In this document: piece after piece, positions 56,746 to 64,000 of the stretch
How positions within the stretch are numbered: the stretch's first letter is position 1
How the letters are laid out: every line of letters begins with the position of its first letter
Assembly: GCA_964642585.1 (NCBI GenBank)
Contig: CAZXPB010000001.1
Span: 3,733-67,732, forward strand
Direction of reading: 5' to 3'
DNA from: an uncultured Candidatus Saccharibacteria bacterium
Lineage (GTDB): Bacteria > Patescibacteriota > Doudnabacteria > UBA920
Length of the DNA stretch: 64,000 nt
The notes under the pieces: model-generated
Seen by the model: only the letters and a program-made list of their open reading frames with translations
What the model was told of the DNA's origin: nothing
Database searches by the model: none
Program-made: the position numbers and the translations under genes

Positions 56746-56832
56746 TGGTGCCTAGGGAGGGACTTGAACCCTCAATCCCTTGCGGGCCCAGGATTTTAAG
56801 TCCTGTGCGTATACCAATTCCGCCACCCAGGC
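56746..56832 (-). tRNA. tRNA-Leu (UAA), type II with long variable arm, CCA encoded
   Basis: GCCTGGGTGGCGGAATTGGTA...CAGGA-CTTAAAA-TCCTG...GGGTTCAAGTCCCTCCCTAGGCACCA. Confidence 0.9.
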
Positions 56833-56843
56833 AAAGCACTCGT

Positions 56844-56918
56844 TGGAGGTGCAGATGGGAATCGAACCCATGCATAGTGGTTTTGCAGACCACGGCGTTT
56901 CCACTTCGCCACTGCACC
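56844..56918 (-). tRNA. tRNA-Cys (GCA), CCA encoded
   Basis: GGTGCAG acceptor, 3-bp D-stem, anticodon loop CTGCAAA, discriminator U. Confidence 0.9.
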
Positions 56919-57030: not shown

Positions 57031-57720
57031 TTATTTGACTAAGGTAAGTTCAGCTGTTGCTGTTACTACATTAGGGATTTGAACTGGGTGGCTTAAGAAA
57101 GCTACTCGTTCATTTTTGGCTTGTTCAGTAATCGCAAGTAAATCATTACTTACGCTGTTACAACCATTTACCCATCGTGCACTACCAGGTACAACATAAA
57201 CACCTTTCATCGCGTTACAGTTTGTAAAGCGTTCTTTGTAGATAGGTTTTTCTAGAATACGGTTCATATCTACGAACCAATCTAGTTTAGTAGCGTAGCG
57301 TCTCCATGAAGGATGGCTAGGGGCTACACCAATACCACTACAGTTGTTATCGGCACAACGCTTACCAAAGTTACTTTCTACGTAACTAATAGCAAGGGCG
57401 CGTTGCCATTGAGGTTGTTTTACAATTTCTTCCGCATATTCTGCAAGCGGAGATCCTTTCGATTCAAGATAGGCTTTAACTTTTGGAGCAAGAAAAACAT
57501 TGATGTTTGTCGTTGCTTCAAAACGGACTACTTCATCGTAGGTCAGTAACTTTTGTGTTGATTTTGAGTCGATCTCAAAAACTAGAGCTTTGTTCCTGTG
57601 ATTCTGAGCAACATAAGCTGCTGCCACGGATTCAGGATAAATCATGAATACGAGGGGTAAGAAAGCAAGTACTACTACCGCTTTCTCAATGACAGAATTT
57701 AGGACTAAAGGAGCTTTCAT
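57031..57720 (-). CDS. hypothetical secreted protein (Cys-containing; ISYVESNFGKR motif hints at glycoside-hydrolase/transglycosylase-like fold, tentative)
   Basis: Signal peptide MKAPLVLNSVIEKAVVVLAFLPLVFMIYPESVAAA; 229 aa. Confidence 0.6.
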   Translation of the reverse strand: MKAPLVLNSVIEKAVVVLAFLPLVFMIYPESVAAAYVAQNHRNKALVFEIDSKSTQKLLTYDEVVRFEATTNINVFLAPKVKAYLESKGSPLAEYAEEIVKQPQWQRALAISYVESNFGKRCADNNCSGIGVAPSHPSWRRYATKLDWFVDMNRILEKPIYKERFTNCNAMKGVYVVPGSARWVNGCNSVSNDLLAITEQAKNERVAFLSHPVQIPNVVTATAELTLVK

Positions 57721-58081
57721 TTTTTAAATATCAACTCCTTATATCTATGGTAATAATCGCGAGGGGTTCAATCTTGGGTGCTATTCCCTGACTTTTACGA
57801 CCTAGATTTAATATTCTTAAGCTTTGACCTTGTTGGGGTTACTGCGATTAACAGCTTTTTTAGTCTAGTTTTGCCTATATTTGGGCTAAAAGCTCGCATA
57901 TAGGCTATAAAAAAGACTGCTCAAAGCAGTACCTTACAAATACATTATAGCAGTTTTGGGGGGTAAATACAAGCCATTTTAGGTCGTTTTAGGCTTAAAT
58001 AAGCCAAATAACGTTTTTTTAGGCTTGGGAATGGGCTGAATTGGCATACAACTCCGCTTATTTAAAAGGGGTTTGGTTTTT

Positions 58082-58112
58082 GATGGTGTTCCAAAGTACA
58101 GGATGTTAGGAT
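58082..58112 (-). repeat. 31-nt conserved element (copy A) immediately 3' of the Nudix-1 stop codon
   Basis: Minus-strand reading TCCTAACATCCTGTACTTTGGAACACCATCA followed by AAAAAC; matches copy B at 58551-58584. Confidence 0.6.
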
Positions 58113-58507
58113 TTATCATTTGCAAAGTTTTTAACCCATTCGCCACGTAATTTTAAATTATTAAGTTTTTCAACAGGAAACCACTTGGCATCAAGAAGGT
58201 CATCTCCAGGAATTAAATTCCCTGAAGTGATCTTGGCTTTAAAAATAGTTAAGGTTACTTGCTTGTTGTGGAATTCACTCAAGCATTTTAATTCCTTGCC
58301 TGTCATTGTTAGAGTATATTTTTTACCCAGACTTACGATGTAGCCAGTTTCTTCTTTTGTTTCTCTACTAGCTCCTTCTGCTAATGTTTCATTCTTTTCT
58401 AATGAGCCTATTGGTAATGACCATAACCCGTTCGCGGCAGTGTGCGATTCCTGAACTAATAATACCTGACTATTTTTGTTAACTAATGTTCCTGCAAATT
58501 GCATCAT
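58106..58507 (-). CDS. Nudix hydrolase
   Basis: Nudix box GSLEKNETLAEGASRETKEETGY; leaderless start with extended -10. Confidence 0.85.
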   Translation of the reverse strand: MMQFAGTLVNKNSQVLLVQESHTAANGLWSLPIGSLEKNETLAEGASRETKEETGYIVSLGKKYTLTMTGKELKCLSEFHNKQVTLTIFKAKITSGNLIPGDDLLDAKWFPVEKLNNLKLRGEWVKNFANDKS

Positions 58508-58549
58508 AAACCTAGTATAACAAAAAACTCCCCTTTAGGGAGAGCTTTT
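58508..58549 (-). promoter_or_regulatory. terminator hairpin (ctccc-taaa-gggag + T6) immediately followed by extended -10 promoter TGtTATACT, 6 nt from the Nudix-1 ATG
   Basis: Minus-strand reading ...aaaaagctctccctaaaggggagttttttgttatactaggtttATG. Confidence 0.6.
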
Positions 58550-58550
58550 T

Positions 58551-58584
58551 GATGGAGCTCCATAGTACAGGACGTTAGAACGTC
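58551..58584 (-). repeat. 31-nt conserved element (copy B) immediately 3' of the small Zn-ribbon protein stop codon
   Basis: Minus-strand reading (GACG)TCTAACGTCCTGTACTATGGAGCTCCATCA + AAAAAG; ~80% identical to copy A. Confidence 0.6.
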
Positions 58585-58886
58585 TATTTCACAATATCAG
58601 CAGATACAATTTTCTTAGTAATAGCTCCTACGAATACTCTGTAAGCTGGTCTACTTTCTTTCTTATAGATAATCTTACTACCTAGCACTTCTTTGCACTT
58701 AGTGCAGATTAAGTCATTACTCTTAGGCGCAGTTGGGTAAATACGGTCTAAATATAAACGTTTGATTATTCCTGGGCCATCTTTCTGATAATAGAATAAA
58801 TGATGTCCCGCTCTTTCACATTTAATATCCAACAACCTAGATGTTCCACCTCTATTCTTTCTGTATTTGTCCTGTTTAAGTTTCAT
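58584..58886 (-). CDS. small basic zinc-ribbon protein (C-x3-HH...C-x2-C), hypothetical
   Basis: 100 aa, 11-nt overlap with upstream Nudix-2 gene; K/R rich. Confidence 0.55.
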   Translation of the reverse strand: MKLKQDKYRKNRGGTSRLLDIKCERAGHHLFYYQKDGPGIIKRLYLDRIYPTAPKSNDLICTKCKEVLGSKIIYKKESRPAYRVFVGAITKKIVSADIVK

Positions 58887-59418
58887 TAACCAATTTAGTT
58901 AATAGTTCTTTGATCTCTTTAAATCCTGTTGGTCTGCTTGACCATTGATCGGGCTTTTCTTCTATGGAGTTTAAGACATCATCCAAAGACATCCATTTTA
59001 CTCCTTGCACTTCTCCGTCATTAAAGATTAAGTCATTCGTGTCGCCTGTAAAGTTGTAGAAGTATACATTAGTAAATTCTCTATTTGGTAACTTATCTCT
59101 TTTGTGAATAGGTCCCACGGTGACTTGTTCGGTAGAGATATCAAGACCTGTTTCTTCTTTCAGTTCATTTTTCAGGGCTTCTTCAAGGGTTTCTCCAGCC
59201 TTTACATGACCACCAAACCTAGTATCCCACTTATCAGGATTTAAGTCCTTGGTTTTGGAACGATGATGTACTAACAATTCAATAACTTCGTTATTAAGTC
59301 GGTAGAAGTAAATATGTACAGTTCGATGCCATAATCCTTGGGTATGAGCTTCAGAACGTAGTCTTTTCTCACCGGTTAAATTGCCCGATTCATCTAGTAT
59401 GTCAAAATATTCTTCCAT
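58876..59418 (-). CDS. Nudix hydrolase (second copy)
   Basis: Nudix box GGHVKAGETLEEALKNELKEETGL; extended -10 TGtTATACT 6 nt before ATG. Confidence 0.85.
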   Translation of the reverse strand: MEEYFDILDESGNLTGEKRLRSEAHTQGLWHRTVHIYFYRLNNEVIELLVHHRSKTKDLNPDKWDTRFGGHVKAGETLEEALKNELKEETGLDISTEQVTVGPIHKRDKLPNREFTNVYFYNFTGDTNDLIFNDGEVQGVKWMSLDDVLNSIEEKPDQWSSRPTGFKEIKELLTKLVNET

Positions 59419-59475: not shown

Positions 59476-61779
59476 TTAAGAAGAAGTAGTTGAGGTGCAA
59501 ATTGTCTCAAGCCGTGAATAATGATCTTCATCAGCCAACTCAATAAATTTTAGTACATTTAGCGCAATGGGTTTTGCTTCGAGCATTGATGCAGATATAC
59601 CGCGAGAGAAATCTTGACCGTGAGAATATTCGTGCAAAAACTTCACAATAAAATCTCCAGTTCCTTTCATTCTATCATCGTTACTCGTTACGAATCTACT
59701 CATTACAATACTATTAAATTCTTCAGTTGTTGCACATGACCACTTAAACCCAGCAAAATATTCTAAGATCTTTCGAGCTATATTCGCAACAAGTGGTTCG
59801 TCGAGCTGTCGTGTACCCTTAGCGAATTGATAAAGTCTACAGAATAAATACTGATACTCACTTTTATATTCTTTTAGTAAGTTAGGCAGATTTTCTATTT
59901 TGACTTCTTGGACTTCGCTTTCTTTATCGTGAGTAATCAGAAACATATTAGACTCATCTTTGTATTGTCTACTCATAAGCCAATCCCGAATAAGATTAAA
60001 GAAATCGAAGTTGTGAGTAAGTACTATTAATTGACCCACATCCTTTAAATGTCTTTTTATTAAACCCGCTGTGCGGAACAAGAATATACTGTCTTGACTG
60101 TCGACTGGATCATCTAAAACAACAAGGCAATTAGCTTTATCGCTATCATTTTCTTCCAGTTTAATTAAGAAATAAACTAAAGCTAAAACACTTTCCTCTC
60201 CCTCGCTAAGATGTTTGGCATCTTTTCCTCTTCTTTTCAGAATGTAAGATATTTCTCCGTCATCTGACTCATTTACCTCCAGATAGATAAGTGATTCCCC
60301 GAAAAATTCTTTTAATAGTGAATTAATTTTATCCACCGCATCAGATGCGTTTGTCAAAGACGCTTTTAAGACTTTAATATCTAGGAGTGTTTTGTTTCGT
60401 TCTTCTTTAGCTTTTTCTATTTCTGCCGTTAGTCTAATTACCTCACTTTTATTTTTAAAGTAGTTTTTGTTCTCTAGAATAGAAGCAATTGTATGAAGTT
60501 CAATACTTTCTGCAGCCGCTTTCACCTCTTCTGATATAGATTGCACTCTAATATTGTGCTCACTAACTATCTTTTCTATTGTTTTAAGAGATTCATTCGC
60601 TTTTTCTATATCTTCTCTGGGATATTCAATTGGTTCGTGCTTCTTCTCGTGATTGTGTAAATCAACCTGCTTATCTTTCAACTGCGTTATGATTAGGTTG
60701 ATTTGGTTTTGTATATTTTGAACGTGTTGTGATAATTCTTTCTTAGCAGCAGCACATTCTTTGCTTGGCTCGGGAAACAAAAGAGATGGTTCTAGTTCTG
60801 GAAGTTTCTCATTATTATCATTTCCAGCTAACAAATTAATAGTTTCTTGTATTTGTAATTTCGCTTTTTGTAGTTCGTCGGTAAAGAAACCACCTAACTG
60901 TACTAATAGATCATCTGGTAAAACGCCTTTGCAAAATTGGCATTCTTTTAACCCTCTTTGCTTATGTATTTTGTAACCAGCTTCTATCCAATCCTTTAAC
61001 TCACCATCTTCCTTTAATCCTTCAATGTTTTGAAAAGTAATTGAAGTGTTTAATAAACCATTGGCACTATCGAACAATTCTTCAAAATCCTCAATAGTGT
61101 TAAATTTAATATTTATCTCGGTCTTCTCATTTTTTATTACTTCTTTTTTAGAATCAACTTCGCTAGGTTCAGCAATAATAAGTGAGTTTAAGTTAGCTTC
61201 TGTGATAACCCCAGTTTCTAAACGTTTGTCTACCTTTAATTTATTATAACTTCGTCCGTAATATGTATCATCCCCTAATGGTGTATTGGTAAATTGTTTA
61301 GGAACTTCTCGGCCAGCTTGAGTTAATACATCGTCGGGATTAGGTATTTGTTTAAGTTGTTCTTCGAGTGTTTGTATTGTATTTTGATTAGTCTGGTAGT
61401 TTGATTCGTGTTGTTCAATTTGTTGTTGGGCTGTTACATTCTCTTTACCTAATATTACAATCTTTTTTGCTTGGGAATCCTCAAAGGATAAATTTTCTGT
61501 AATAAAGTCTTCGTTAAATACCTTAACGTTAAGTCCATTAGAAGTTATGTCTGTTTGCTTAATTGGAGATGCGTCTGTTTCTATGGAAAATTCAACTGAT
61601 TTCAAATCATCGATGTGAACATCCTTTCTTTCAAGAAAATTAAAGATTCTGGATATAGTAGTTTTTCCAGATCCGTTCCACCCATAAATTAGACCGTACT
61701 TCTTAAAGTCGTCCCCTATCCATTTAAACGCATCGAATGCGTCAATGTGTGTTATCTGTTTTATCTTCTTTATTAGCAT
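59476..61779 (-). CDS. RloC/PrrC-like ABC-type ATPase with coiled-coil CxxC (zinc-hook-like) insertion and C-terminal putative anticodon-nuclease domain
   Basis: Walker A GWNGSGKTT; ~350-aa coiled-coil insert containing CQFCKG; Walker B/D-loop LVVLDDPVDS; H-loop LTHN. C-terminal ARKILEYF...(≈40 aa)...H fits the R-x3-E...H anticodon-nuclease triad pattern (recalled from memory). Start taken at first ATG (MLIKKIK); GTG at 61809 is an alternative. Confidence 0.65.
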   Translation of the reverse strand: MLIKKIKQITHIDAFDAFKWIGDDFKKYGLIYGWNGSGKTTISRIFNFLERKDVHIDDLKSVEFSIETDASPIKQTDITSNGLNVKVFNEDFITENLSFEDSQAKKIVILGKENVTAQQQIEQHESNYQTNQNTIQTLEEQLKQIPNPDDVLTQAGREVPKQFTNTPLGDDTYYGRSYNKLKVDKRLETGVITEANLNSLIIAEPSEVDSKKEVIKNEKTEINIKFNTIEDFEELFDSANGLLNTSITFQNIEGLKEDGELKDWIEAGYKIHKQRGLKECQFCKGVLPDDLLVQLGGFFTDELQKAKLQIQETINLLAGNDNNEKLPELEPSLLFPEPSKECAAAKKELSQHVQNIQNQINLIITQLKDKQVDLHNHEKKHEPIEYPREDIEKANESLKTIEKIVSEHNIRVQSISEEVKAAAESIELHTIASILENKNYFKNKSEVIRLTAEIEKAKEERNKTLLDIKVLKASLTNASDAVDKINSLLKEFFGESLIYLEVNESDDGEISYILKRRGKDAKHLSEGEESVLALVYFLIKLEENDSDKANCLVVLDDPVDSQDSIFLFRTAGLIKRHLKDVGQLIVLTHNFDFFNLIRDWLMSRQYKDESNMFLITHDKESEVQEVKIENLPNLLKEYKSEYQYLFCRLYQFAKGTRQLDEPLVANIARKILEYFAGFKWSCATTEEFNSIVMSRFVTSNDDRMKGTGDFIVKFLHEYSHGQDFSRGISASMLEAKPIALNVLKFIELADEDHYSRLETICTSTTSS

Positions 61780-61818
61780 AATTGAGCTTATCTTAGCAGT
61801 TTTGTTCACTTATTAGAA

Positions 61819-61828
61819 GTGGTATAAT
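61819..61828 (+). promoter_or_regulatory. extended -10 promoter TGgTATAAT; predicted TSS ~61835
   Basis: Read directly; divergent from the RloC-like gene. Confidence 0.5.
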
Positions 61829-61835
61829 ATACGTA

Positions 61836-62024
61836 CAATTAAATGTCCTAACCCCACCTAAGACGTGGGTATGGAAACTAAAACCAATGAAGAATACTGA
61901 ACCCTGCGTTCAGCTATCTTCATTGGTCATGTCTGGAAACGGGCATGGGATCTCACGATCCGGCTGGCGTGGGGCTTTGTGTTAAAGAACCCATGTCGGC
62001 TCTAACTAATTAAGATTGTCGATC
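61836..62024 (+). promoter_or_regulatory. GC-rich highly structured 5' leader (~190 nt): candidate riboswitch or cis-regulatory RNA, class unassigned
   Basis: Long irregular helix ccaatgaagaata[ctgaac-cctgc-gttcag]ctatcttcattgg; ggatc-tcac-gatcc; catggg...cccatg closing helix. GC content far above the flanking DNA. Confidence 0.4.
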
Positions 62025-62453
62025 ATGGAAAAAGAAAACAAGATAGTATATTGGTTACGTTGGTTCGCTGTATTCCCTGGAGCTCTAATCGGTGGTTTTA
62101 TATCTAGTATGATTGCTAGTTTCCCGATACATTGGATCCTAGTCCTGAAAGCGTCATCTAATCCTGATGGAGCAACTGCTAGCAATTTTGAAACAATTGA
62201 GTTAGCTATTACATCATTTGTATTTACTGCTCTGTATATACATTTAGGAACTAAAATAGCACCTACAGGTAAAAAGTATATAACCGCCTTAGCACTTATT
62301 GTTGCTTTAATAATATTGGTAATCATACTAGCTACATCTTTCCATTTGGGAATGAGTAGTATTTCAAGAATGATTGCTGCGATATTAGGCCTGATGTATG
62401 CTACTTGGCAAGCTAAGATTGAAGAAAGAAAAATTACTAAGGATAATTCATAG
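62025..62453 (+). CDS. small 4-TM membrane protein, hypothetical (strand ambiguous with antisense ORF 62006-62467)
   Basis: ATG at 62025 (ORF track used TTG at 62016). Chosen over the antisense ORF because of the promoter/leader context and 6-nt coupling to the next + gene. Confidence 0.5.
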   Translation: MEKENKIVYWLRWFAVFPGALIGGFISSMIASFPIHWILVLKASSNPDGATASNFETIELAITSFVFTALYIHLGTKIAPTGKKYITALALIVALIILVIILATSFHLGMSSISRMIAAILGLMYATWQAKIEERKITKDNS

Positions 62454-62459
62454 CTAACA

Positions 62460-62879
62460 ATGAACATCTATCTAGATATTGACGGTGTAATTATTACTAA
62501 AGACAAAAAGATAGCTAATGGCTTAGTAGAGTTTTTAGAATACGCTACACATAATCACACATGTTTCTGGCTCACAACTCACTGTAAAAATGATGCAAAT
62601 CGTGTCGAAGAACATATTAAACCCATACTACCAGAACATGTTTTTAAGCTAGTTCAACGGGTGAAACCAAACTCATGGACGGACTACAAAACTGACGGCA
62701 TTAATTTTGACGAAGATTTTATGTGGTTAGACGACAACCTATTTCTCAAAGAAAAGGATGTTTTACTTAAGAACAACGCTTTGTCCAAGCTAGAACTGAT
62801 CGACTTAAGAGCGAATCCAAATCAGTTGTTAGATATACTAAAAAAGCTGAAATCAAAAACTCGGATAACGTCATATTAG
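62460..62879 (+). CDS. mini HAD-superfamily phosphatase (NT5C/PNKP-phosphatase-like)
   Basis: Motif I LDIDGVI, motif IV WLDDN; 139 aa. Confidence 0.6.
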   Translation: MNIYLDIDGVIITKDKKIANGLVEFLEYATHNHTCFWLTTHCKNDANRVEEHIKPILPEHVFKLVQRVKPNSWTDYKTDGINFDEDFMWLDDNLFLKEKDVLLKNNALSKLELIDLRANPNQLLDILKKLKSKTRITSY

Positions 62880-63030
62880 TGCATATTTGTTGAGCAGGTT
62901 TGGGGTCATAAAAGGTCATATTTTTAATATTGCTGGAAATAGTGATCTCTGAATTAATGTAATCGCTGTGTATTTCGCGCAAAACTCGCTCAAATTTAAG
63001 CGTTTCCGTCGGATCCTTACAAATACCTAT

Positions 63031-63059
63031 TGACTAGCAAAATTCGCTAAAGTACAATG
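63031..63059 (+). promoter_or_regulatory. promoter TTGACT-17-TACAAT with ~140-nt hairpin-rich leader ending in aacaca-ctcga-tgtgtt-UUUAUU just before the wHTH gene
   Basis: Read directly. Confidence 0.45.
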
Positions 63060-63206
63060 CTTTTAATGGAATAAGTAAATCCGAGAAGCCACCTCAGATT
63101 TCGGCATCAAATGCCCCAGGTAAAAAACTCGTGCTAACCAAGGCACCACAATTAAGTTTTTTATCGGGGTGTTATTTATTAACAACACACTCGATGTGTT
63201 TTTATT

Positions 63207-63554
63207 ATGCCTAAAATTAAGCACAAATTTATAAGAGTACACTGGGTAAGTTTAAAAACTTTTAATCTTACACCTACCGAAGTACTGCTATTAAACCTTG
63301 TACAAGGTTTATCTAATAACAAACATAAAGCTTGCTACGCCTCTAAGAAAGCATTGGGAATAGAATTAAATGTGGCTACAAGTACGATTTATAACACTAT
63401 TGATAGTTTGCAAAGGAAAGGACTTTTAAGATCTAAAAGAATTTCTATGAAAGAGGCTCATTTGCAGACCACAAGTAAATGGCAAAGTCATTTAAATCAG
63501 GTTCGATCAGATAATGAACCATTACCAGATGAATGGTCAGACATTGATAACTAA
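63207..63554 (+). CDS. winged-HTH DNA-binding protein resembling phage/plasmid replication-initiator or DnaD-like N-terminal domains
   Basis: …TPTEVLLLNLVQGLSNNKHKACYASKKALGIELNVATSTIYNTIDSLQRKGLLRSKR… typical wHTH pattern. Confidence 0.5.
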   Translation: MPKIKHKFIRVHWVSLKTFNLTPTEVLLLNLVQGLSNNKHKACYASKKALGIELNVATSTIYNTIDSLQRKGLLRSKRISMKEAHLQTTSKWQSHLNQVRSDNEPLPDEWSDIDN

Positions 63555-63570
63555 TTTTCTAATATCCAAA

Positions 63571-63621
63571 TTCTAGAATTAACAGTCTTAATTCTAGAAA
63601 ATTACTCTCCATAATCTAGAA
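63571..63621. repeat. three phased palindromic TTCTAGAA-type repeats (iteron/operator-like)
   Basis: aaaTTCTAGAAtt (63571), aaTTCTAGAAaa (63592), aaTCTAGAAta (63615); spacing 21-22 bp. Confidence 0.55.
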
Positions 63622-63726
63622 TATTAGCATCCAGATTTTAGAGACAATATATATAACAATACAAATAATTAATATTTATAAGTAATAGCTTTACGAAATC
63701 AATTCGTAAAGAACTCAAACTAATAA

Positions 63727-63888
63727 TATGCAATTAACAGATAAACAAATACAAGAATATATAGATCTACATAAAAAAAAGTTTGGAGAAACTATAAGTC
63801 GTGAAGAAGCTATTGTCCAAGCTACTAAATTATTGGATTTAGTTAAACTTGTTTATAAACCAATTAAGAAAGATTCTGATAAAAGATA
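63727..63888 (+). CDS. small hypothetical protein (53 aa)
   Basis: MQLTDKQIQEYIDLHKKKFGETISREEAIVQATKLLDLVKLVYKPIKKDSDKR; below ORF-track cutoff; weakly supported. Confidence 0.3.
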
Positions 63889-64000
63889 GTTTGTCCCCCG
63901 TGCCAAGAGGAATCGTATCGGTGATAATTTAAATAACAACTATCCCGTGCCTAAGTAACAATTTGAGTTGATAATTCCTTTATTGGAATAGTCTTTATCT

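Follow-up and report, generated by a model that had tools for sequence, protein, structure and literature searches.

A LOOT RNA copy in a Doudnabacteria genome, and evidence that the family may act as a cis-acting leader with a terminator-like helix

The window analysed here is a 64,000-nucleotide stretch of contig CAZXPB010000001.1, from an uncultured Candidatus Saccharibacteria bacterium that GTDB places in Doudnabacteria (UBA920). Close to its right-hand end, a leader of ~190 nucleotides (nt) separates a promoter-like element from two genes on the same strand, the first encoding a hydrophobic orphan protein and the second a small HAD-like protein. The core of this leader matches LOOT RNA, a family catalogued in Rfam as RF03000. 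We compared the leader with 109 relatives and describe below a 3' extension of the RNA that pairs with the tip of helix P2 in a terminator-like helix. The features of the locus are the following.

61820-61828, plus strand: promoter-like element of the extended -10 type, TGgTATAAT, with its hexamer at 61823-61828; read from the sequence, activity putative.
61845-61961, plus strand: LOOT RNA as in the Rfam model (P1, P2, P3, P4); cmscan.
61846-61875, plus strand: P1, with an internal loop made of CCUAAC (61847-61852) and UAUGG (61870-61874); the Rfam consensus has CCUAA...GCAUGG in upper case.
61884-61926, plus strand: P2, with a lower stem (61884-61893/61917-61926) and an upper tip hairpin (61897-61902/61908-61913); Rfam model and minimum free energy (MFE) fold.
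61900-61915, plus strand: segment A, the part of the P2 tip that pairs with the 3' extension and overlaps the tip hairpin; RNAalifold and covariation counts.
61928-61947, plus strand: P3, 8 bp, with a GAAA tetraloop at 61936-61939; Rfam model and covarying pairs (A1 columns 105-113 with 118-127).
61948-61961, plus strand: P4 hairpin, GGAUC UCAC GAUCC; Rfam model and MFE fold.
61962-61974, plus strand: segment B, the 3' extension GGCUGGCGUGGGG, outside the Rfam model and partner of A; RNAalifold, covariation and duplex energy.
61975-61983, plus strand: U-tract CUUUGUGUU, directly 3' of the A:B helix, terminator-like; U counts in 110 sequences.
61990-62002, plus strand: segment C, CCCAUGUCGGCUC, predicted to pair with B as the last hairpin of the leader (61962-62002); MFE fold, B:C duplex -22.1 kcal/mol.
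62025-62453, plus strand: first downstream gene, a 142-residue hydrophobic orphan with about four transmembrane segments; open reading frame (ORF), segments counted from the sequence.
62460-62879, plus strand: second gene, a 139-residue capless HAD-like protein, starting 6 nt after the first; homologues, motifs and predicted structure.

The match to LOOT RNA covers model positions 1-121 of 121, and its 71.0 bits (E 2e-11) exceed the gathering score of 46.4. It is the sole non-tRNA match of the whole window to Rfam 15 at curated thresholds, and a permissive scan of 56-64 kb found no second family at E <= 1 over the leader, ZTP included. The original prediction, made from the sequence alone, had left the leader in an unassigned class, a label that was to fall with an Rfam hit to a known family. 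Judged by this full-length match, the leader is a new copy of the catalogued LOOT family and not a new class. The faint likeness to the ZTP riboswitch noted at the time is limited to a GGCUGGCG-like string and to pseudoknot-type pairing with a 3' segment; in LOOT this string is the covarying partner of the P2 tip and not the ZTP core. The window copy shows the hallmarks of the family, namely the CCUAA/(C/U)AUGG loop in P1, the long two-part P2 and the 8-bp P3 with its GAAA. Only P4 differs: it is a 5-bp hairpin with the loop UCAC in place of the consensus GNRA, and it carries two deletions relative to the Rfam model. The source of LOOT RNA is Weinberg et al. 2017 (PMC5737381). The Rfam 14 paper labels it a 'metagenomic-based RNA' (PMC7779021), and Rivas 2020 gives it six helices, ~43 base pairs and numerous cross-covariations (PMC7657543). 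In the literature that we searched, mentions of LOOT are confined to Rfam papers and one structure-prediction paper and include no functional study.

The leader is strongly structured, as had been claimed for this site. The MFE of 61830-62030 is -78.6 kcal/mol, compared to -48.9 +/- 4.2 kcal/mol for 200 dinucleotide shuffles (z = -7.17), none of which is as stable. The long interrupted helix capped by CTGAAC/GTTCAG that the original prediction described is P2, and the leader indeed fills the space between TGgTATAAT and the first start codon, an ATG at 62025. Its composition had been overstated: the GC content is 0.45-0.50, not ~60%, against 0.376 for the window, and a value of 0.57 is reached by the last hairpin only (61962-62003). 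TGgTATAAT lies 17 nt upstream of the first helix and is unlisted in a consensus promoter scan because its -35 is poor. Across the family, -10-like hexamers cluster 10-33 nt upstream of P1 (108 LOOT loci).

Relatives were collected with a DNA pattern built from the upper-case positions of the Rfam consensus. The pattern matched 18 stretches in IMG/VR and at least 120 in GTDB species genomes, and all family figures given below rest on these matches; after filtering, 110 distinct copies remained, the window included. When tested with Rfam, 19 of 20 genome loci and 4 of 16 viral contigs proved to hold LOOT. Most of the 103 genome-derived copies (83, ~81%) belong to metagenome-assembled genomes (MAGs) of Patescibacteria, the candidate phyla radiation (CPR), while 12 belong to other named taxa, mostly on short MAG contigs, and 8 to unclassified bacteria. 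This CPR bias is not an artefact of database order, because pattern matches other than LOOT fall in ordinary phyla. The pattern biases neither the region 3' of P3 nor any context statistic. When 56-64 kb of the window was compared with all fetched loci, LOOT was the sole similar DNA, and a distant DNA search of 61800-62900 against phage genomes gave no match. Tandem or cassette arrays are rejected, since each of the 20 scanned loci (8 kb) has a single LOOT. LOOT can be multi-copy within one genome bin: in two cases (L048 with L129, L113 with L122) two different copies sit on separate contigs of the same MAG, and in one of these pairs the sequence 3' of the U-tract is identical.

All 110 copies continue past P4 into an extension with the consensus UGGCGGnGGGCUUUUUGU, which is absent from the 121-nt Rfam model. 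Unguided RNAalifold of the 110 sequences pairs this extension with the tip of P2. The resulting A:B helix (A1 columns 72-82 with 171-181) has 92.9% standard pairs; all 10 pairs change on both sides, giving 232 double-change cells. Its covariation score is 0.642, whereas sliding the partner by 1-3 columns lowers the score to at most 0.21, and none of 500 shuffles reaches 0.642. The covariation analysis of homologous leaders that had been proposed as a check gives strong support to this helix. Likewise, the duplex energy of A with its own partner averages -25.5 kcal/mol over the loci, compared to -15.3 kcal/mol with swapped partners. The 9 nt that follow the helix contain on average 5.8 U (background 0.25 per position), with at least 5 U in 99 of the 110 copies. 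Together, the A:B helix and the U-tract form what looks like a terminator: a GC-rich helix (61900-61915 with 61962-61974 in the window) followed at once by a run of U. One trait of an intrinsic terminator is missing, the short simple loop, as A:B encloses the P2 3' strand, P3 and P4 (~46 nt in the window); a consensus terminator scan reported nothing on the plus strand. From its geometry, A:B would either be pseudoknotted with the P2 lower stem or, if P2 opens, form a stem that encloses P3 and P4.

The A:B helix has a competitor. The tip hairpin of P2 is more stable than its shuffles family-wide (mean z = -2.2; 91% of copies below -1), and every one of the 110 sequences has at least 4 nt that pair both with B and within the tip hairpin. 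Because these nucleotides are shared, A:B excludes the local hairpin. Nested MFE folds of the 110 sequences up to the U-tract give A:B in 58 cases and full P2 in 46. When 70 nt more are included, A:B remains in 25 and P2 is formed in 59, while B pairs with downstream sequence in 64. Such a downstream partner of B, segment C in the window, exceeds 2 standard deviations in 17% of loci vs 3% of swapped controls and is clear in about a sixth of loci. A repeat concerns P2 itself. In 26 of 110 loci there is an exact second copy of at least 9 nt from the 5' strand of its lower stem, compared to 35 of 1087 swapped pairs (p = 6e-13), and the repeat mostly ends 1-6 nt upstream of an ATG, the position of the ribosome-binding site (RBS) of the next gene. 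Because the repeat copies the P2 5' strand at this position, the P2 3' strand can mask the RBS region. We rejected segment C and this anti-RBS repeat as universal features, each being clear in only ~1/5 to 1/4 of loci. We also rejected the repeat as a target-site duplication or attB: P1 lies outside the repeat, and the gene order of locus L037, described below, puts LOOT inside the element.

The conserved loop of P1 offers a probable tertiary contact. The 11-nt receptor of GAAA tetraloops has the sequence CCUAAG/UAUGG (PMC11381326). The P1 loop, CCUAA(A/C)...(C/U)AUGG, resembles this receptor; the window, with CCUAAC/UAUGG, has 10 of its 11 nt, in addition to the GAAA of P3. Loop position six and its partner (A1 columns 8 and 32; 61852 and 61870 in the window) are coupled, being A/C in 77 copies, C/U in 28 and G/U in 1. 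The A/C and C/U combinations are non-Watson-Crick and stand in place of the canonical G-U of the receptor. On the basis of these sequences, the GAAA of P3 probably docks into the receptor-like loop of P1. We considered a leader peptide starting at the conserved AUGG, and rejected it: the CCUAA pairing partner and the covariation of the helix explain the conservation better.

We then compared what lies downstream of LOOT across the family. An ORF of at least 60 residues follows in 103 loci, and in 95 of these it shares the strand of LOOT (binomial p = 5e-20). A median of 37 nt separates the U-tract from its start, which leaves no space for a separate promoter. Upstream genes are randomly oriented, 48 being co-directional and 52 divergent. 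This arrangement suggests that LOOT is a cis-acting regulatory leader, despite the 'sRNA' (small RNA) label in Rfam. The riboswitch-like, cis-acting architecture that had been proposed for the window is hence backed by co-orientation, by the competing A:B helix and by the RBS copy found in a quarter of loci. Two generic traits of riboswitches are present: a structured domain in the 5' untranslated region (UTR), and a computed expression platform that is exclusive with part of this domain.

The downstream genes themselves are mutually unrelated. The 105 downstream proteins fall into 91 clusters, and among 94 of the proteins each Pfam family is represented at most 3 times. Those found are of the envelope type and include DUF4352, a zinc ribbon plus transmembrane segment, PG_binding_1, SH3_3, trypsin-like and subtilisin-like proteases, signal peptidase and pilin N-termini. 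Within their first 90 residues, 71% of downstream proteins have a strongly hydrophobic 19-residue segment, compared to 22% of 632 other ORFs of the same loci (Fisher p = 1.5e-20), and this N-terminal segment is the only trait that they have in common. The cargo of LOOT is thus, as far as can be predicted, a variable set of membrane or secreted envelope proteins with no conserved gene, and it offers no inference of a ligand. The first gene of the window fits this picture: the 142-residue protein is hydrophobic, with the four or so transmembrane-length segments that had been read from its sequence, it belongs to no Pfam, PADLOC or NCBIfam family, and its sole match among 5.8 billion proteins is itself. 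The proposal that the leader regulates a small transporter is not supported: this protein has no homologue in that search, homologues of the second gene in four other contexts are without LOOT, and the downstream genes of the family are mutually unrelated. A holin-endolysin cassette is rejected, as there is no recurrent endolysin neighbour and the downstream proteins, with 181 residues at the median, carry varied extracytoplasmic domains; a type I toxin is rejected as well, the downstream proteins being too long and too varied.

The wider surroundings of LOOT point to mobile DNA. Among the 89 upstream neighbours, 8 are large serine recombinases (6 divergent, 2 co-directional; 26-150 nt from LOOT), and others are a tyrosine integrase, several restriction-modification (R-M) enzymes, a Zeta toxin and OLD-like ATPases. 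Clustering of all 1030 ORFs of the 110 loci revealed a serine recombinase in 39/110 loci, a ParB-N6/N4 methylase fusion in 15/110, a terminase-small-like helix-turn-helix (HTH) protein in 14/110, a terminase-large-like protein in 9/110, an HTH_3 repressor-like protein in 6/110 and a tyrosine integrase in 4/110. In 53 of the 110 loci at least one recombinase, terminase-like or ParB-methylase family is present. LOOT also occurs on six IMG/VR contigs, whose other genes include recombinases, type I R-M systems, AbiEii-like and OLD-like ATPases and one terminase. From these gene contents we conclude that LOOT units belong to the accessory and mobile DNA of CPR bacteria, on integrative or phage-like elements and in defence islands, and the window fits. 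In locus L037 (2490-4564), a tRNA gene is overlapped by the 3' end of a large serine recombinase gene, and LOOT lies 94 nt from the recombinase start; this order suggests an element integrated at the tRNA, with LOOT as its second feature.

Taking the architecture as a whole, we favour, with moderate confidence, the view that LOOT is a cis-acting 5' leader with a built-in transcription attenuator. Termination itself, read-through and a regulated choice between the two are what we infer from the fold. Transcription would start ~10 nt upstream of P1 and the RNA would fold into P1-P4, probably with the P3 GAAA docked in the receptor-like loop of P1. As long as the P2 tip is kept in its own hairpin, the extension could not form the terminator and transcription would continue. 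Once the tip is free, A:B would form and transcription would stop at the U-tract. Read-through transcripts would run into the next gene ~40 nt on, with B captured by C where C exists (61990-62002 in the window); where the RBS copy exists, the opened P2 would also mask translation. Candidates for the trigger are a small ligand, an ion, a protein or temperature. In its 5' UTR site, its structured domain, the sharing of the terminator 5' arm with a domain helix and the RBS masking in some copies, LOOT is like terminating riboswitches and attenuator leaders. It is unlike them in its incoherent regulon and in having no known ligand. Further, terminating riboswitches share their closing helix with the terminator, whereas LOOT would share a distal hairpin tip, and its terminator would enclose two hairpins or form a pseudoknot with the P2 lower stem.

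Several observations weigh against an attenuator of this kind. At about -25 kcal/mol, A:B greatly exceeds the tip hairpin in stability (about -5 kcal/mol), so termination could be constitutive and the downstream gene fed by leakage. A terminator 'loop' that holds P3 and P4 is unlike textbook terminators. The downstream genes lack the coherent pathway or transport theme that is generic to riboswitches, and beyond the tetraloop-receptor pair there are few conserved unpaired nucleotides for a ligand pocket. In the window, segment C is present, the anti-RBS repeat is absent and there is no clear Shine-Dalgarno sequence. Rfam types LOOT as 'Gene; sRNA'. Finally, the search pattern fixes CCUAA, AUGG, GAAA and the length of P3, so that the sample consists of canonical members only and invariance at these positions arises by construction, and the ORF calls across loci are crude.

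That Rfam type raises another possibility, that LOOT is a stand-alone small RNA: its transcription would stop at an unusual terminator of its own and it would act in trans, with the downstream gene as a passenger. One possible variant is an immunity or regulatory RNA of a mobile element, for which we take phage P4 CI RNA and P1 c4 RNA as the comparators. The universal and strong A:B helix and U-tract, thermodynamically dominant over the tip hairpin, could let LOOT accumulate as a small RNA. It sits in elements that bear integrases and terminases, often beside an HTH_3 repressor-like gene, and its targets in trans could be the short downstream copies of LOOT segments (C and the repeat of the P2 5' strand). 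Yet the 92% co-orientation, with the start codon just past the U-tract, leaves no space for a separate promoter; the repeated segment is found within the same transcript, where it occupies the RBS of the gene that follows, and no conserved protein partner or target gene was found in the clustered loci. We therefore regard a trans-acting LOOT as unlikely, although it deserves to be kept in mind.

Within the attenuator reading, LOOT might be a riboswitch of a new class, in which a metabolite or second messenger stabilises P1-P4, including the P2 tip, and so prevents the terminator. A complex conserved fold with a likely tetraloop-receptor contact, the 5' UTR position, the mutually exclusive terminator and the RBS masking in a subset would all suit a riboswitch. 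Heterogeneous sets of envelope and pilin-type genes are typical of second-messenger riboswitches such as cyclic di-GMP-I. In this riboswitch (GEMM-I) two helices touch through a GNRA tetraloop and its receptor, and the genes that follow it are very heterogeneous, pilins and secreted proteins among them; LOOT has another helix layout and no Rfam match to it, and what the two share is a resemblance only. Speaking against a riboswitch are the scarcity of conserved unpaired nucleotides past the tertiary contact, the 94 downstream proteins without a coherent pathway, the lack of any match to a known riboswitch family at E <= 1, and the absence of binding data in the searched literature. We consider this narrower proposal doubtful, marginally more so than a trans-acting RNA. 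As it is a sub-case of the attenuator, its likelihood overlaps with the one given there, and our likelihoods are not meant to add up to certainty.

LOOT could also be a constitutive structural leader that senses nothing: a stabiliser or insulator at the 5' end and an attenuator of fixed strength, keeping accessory genes of mobile elements at low expression. Such a leader would agree with an association indifferent to gene type, with a location in mobile and defence islands, in which promoter, gene and terminator commonly form self-contained units, and with an A:B helix much stronger than its competitor. It is, however, the least probable of these explanations, because a fixed attenuator has no need of a conserved competing hairpin, a tetraloop-receptor fold or the RBS-copy and C segments, and ~150 nt of structure kept across distant CPR lineages would be costly for a passive element.

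Returning to the window, the second gene encodes the mini-HAD phosphatase that had been predicted, in so far as the fold goes. The HAD motifs D6xD8, T39/T40, K77 and D91D92 are all conserved in 47 homologues. The structural model has a predicted local distance difference test (pLDDT) of 93.6, and its best fold matches are the capless HAD phosphatases SCP/FCP, TIM50 and Lem4 (TM-score ~0.55, weak E-values), while Pfam Hydrolase_6 is reached only at E 0.08. The family of ~135-residue capless HAD-like proteins comprises at least 248 homologues and has no Pfam domain; two members are named as CPR. LOOT is not kept upstream of the orthologues of this gene, as four distinct contexts (six loci) are without LOOT. 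In these four contexts (L140-L145) the homologues adjoin R-M and other defence genes, namely MmeI, GmrSD, Vsr/MutH/methylase, PLD and NERD. Judging by such neighbours, the HAD-like protein may itself be a defence-island gene.

On the other side of LOOT and divergent from it, the minus strand at 59476-61809 encodes a 777-residue AAA_13 ATPase that matches PDC-S06, a candidate single-gene defence system of PADLOC, over its full length (E 7e-135). It has a CxxC motif in its predicted coiled-coil region and may resemble RloC. Two adjacent tRNA genes lie 5 kb upstream of LOOT (56749-56918, minus strand). Between these and the ATPase, 57031-59418 on the minus strand holds an unannotated 229-residue ORF, two NUDIX hydrolase genes and a 100-residue ORF. 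The tRNA/NUDIX stretch may be the edge of an island; there is no integrase within the window, the remainder of which is chromosomal (GyrA, S1, HtrA).

Downstream of the LOOT unit, 63030-63206 contains a sigma-70-like promoter match (TTGACT, 17 nt, TACAAT; 10 of 12) and then a moderately structured 145-nt leader (z = -2.9) that precedes an HTH_36 gene at 63207. This leader includes a 15-nt inverted repeat (63115-63129/63155-63169) and has no Rfam match. Past the HTH_36 gene, 63552-63625 is AT-rich (GC ~0.21), with direct and inverted copies of (A)ATTCTAGAA(T) at 63569, 63590 and 63613, which look like an operator or the iteron cluster of a mobile element. A 53-residue ORF at 63728-63889 on the plus strand is related by tblastn (E 1e-8) to a family of small proteins that five other LOOT loci encode (e.g. 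L105, L094 and L084); it is the only protein common to the window and other LOOT neighbourhoods, and it has no Pfam family.

By analogy, LOOT units recall phage morons and lysogenic-conversion cassettes, and also the RNA-based immunity of P4 and P1: a self-contained promoter-leader-gene unit that encodes envelope proteins, lies near integrase, repressor-like and terminase genes and carries internal complementary segments in its leader. We know of no moron family with a conserved structured leader. As a speculation, which we hold tentatively and think rather unlikely, LOOT could be an unrecognised sensing RNA of CPR bacteria and their mobile elements, a riboswitch or a protein-responsive leader whose terminator stem is built from the tip of an aptamer helix and the 3' tail. 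Such an RNA would answer a common signal, perhaps a nucleotide second messenger or an ion, by switching on highly variable proteins of the surface or envelope; superinfection-exclusion and host-contact factors would be examples.

Taken alone, the window holds one more copy of a catalogued family that has been described from metagenomes only. As far as we could check, the 3' extension with its terminator-like helix, the cis arrangement, the envelope cargo and the link to CPR mobile elements are absent from the searched literature. Inducible expression systems are still missing in Patescibacteria, and a recent review counts riboswitches among the promising options (PMC11665869); a native switchable leader would also serve as a genetic tool. 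The architecture of LOOT, with its terminator-like helix, competing hairpin and RBS copy, opens its function to direct experiment. If the analysis holds, LOOT would be among the few conserved regulatory RNAs known in CPR bacteria, and one with ties to their most variable genome regions, the envelope-protein genes of integrative or phage-like elements and defence islands.

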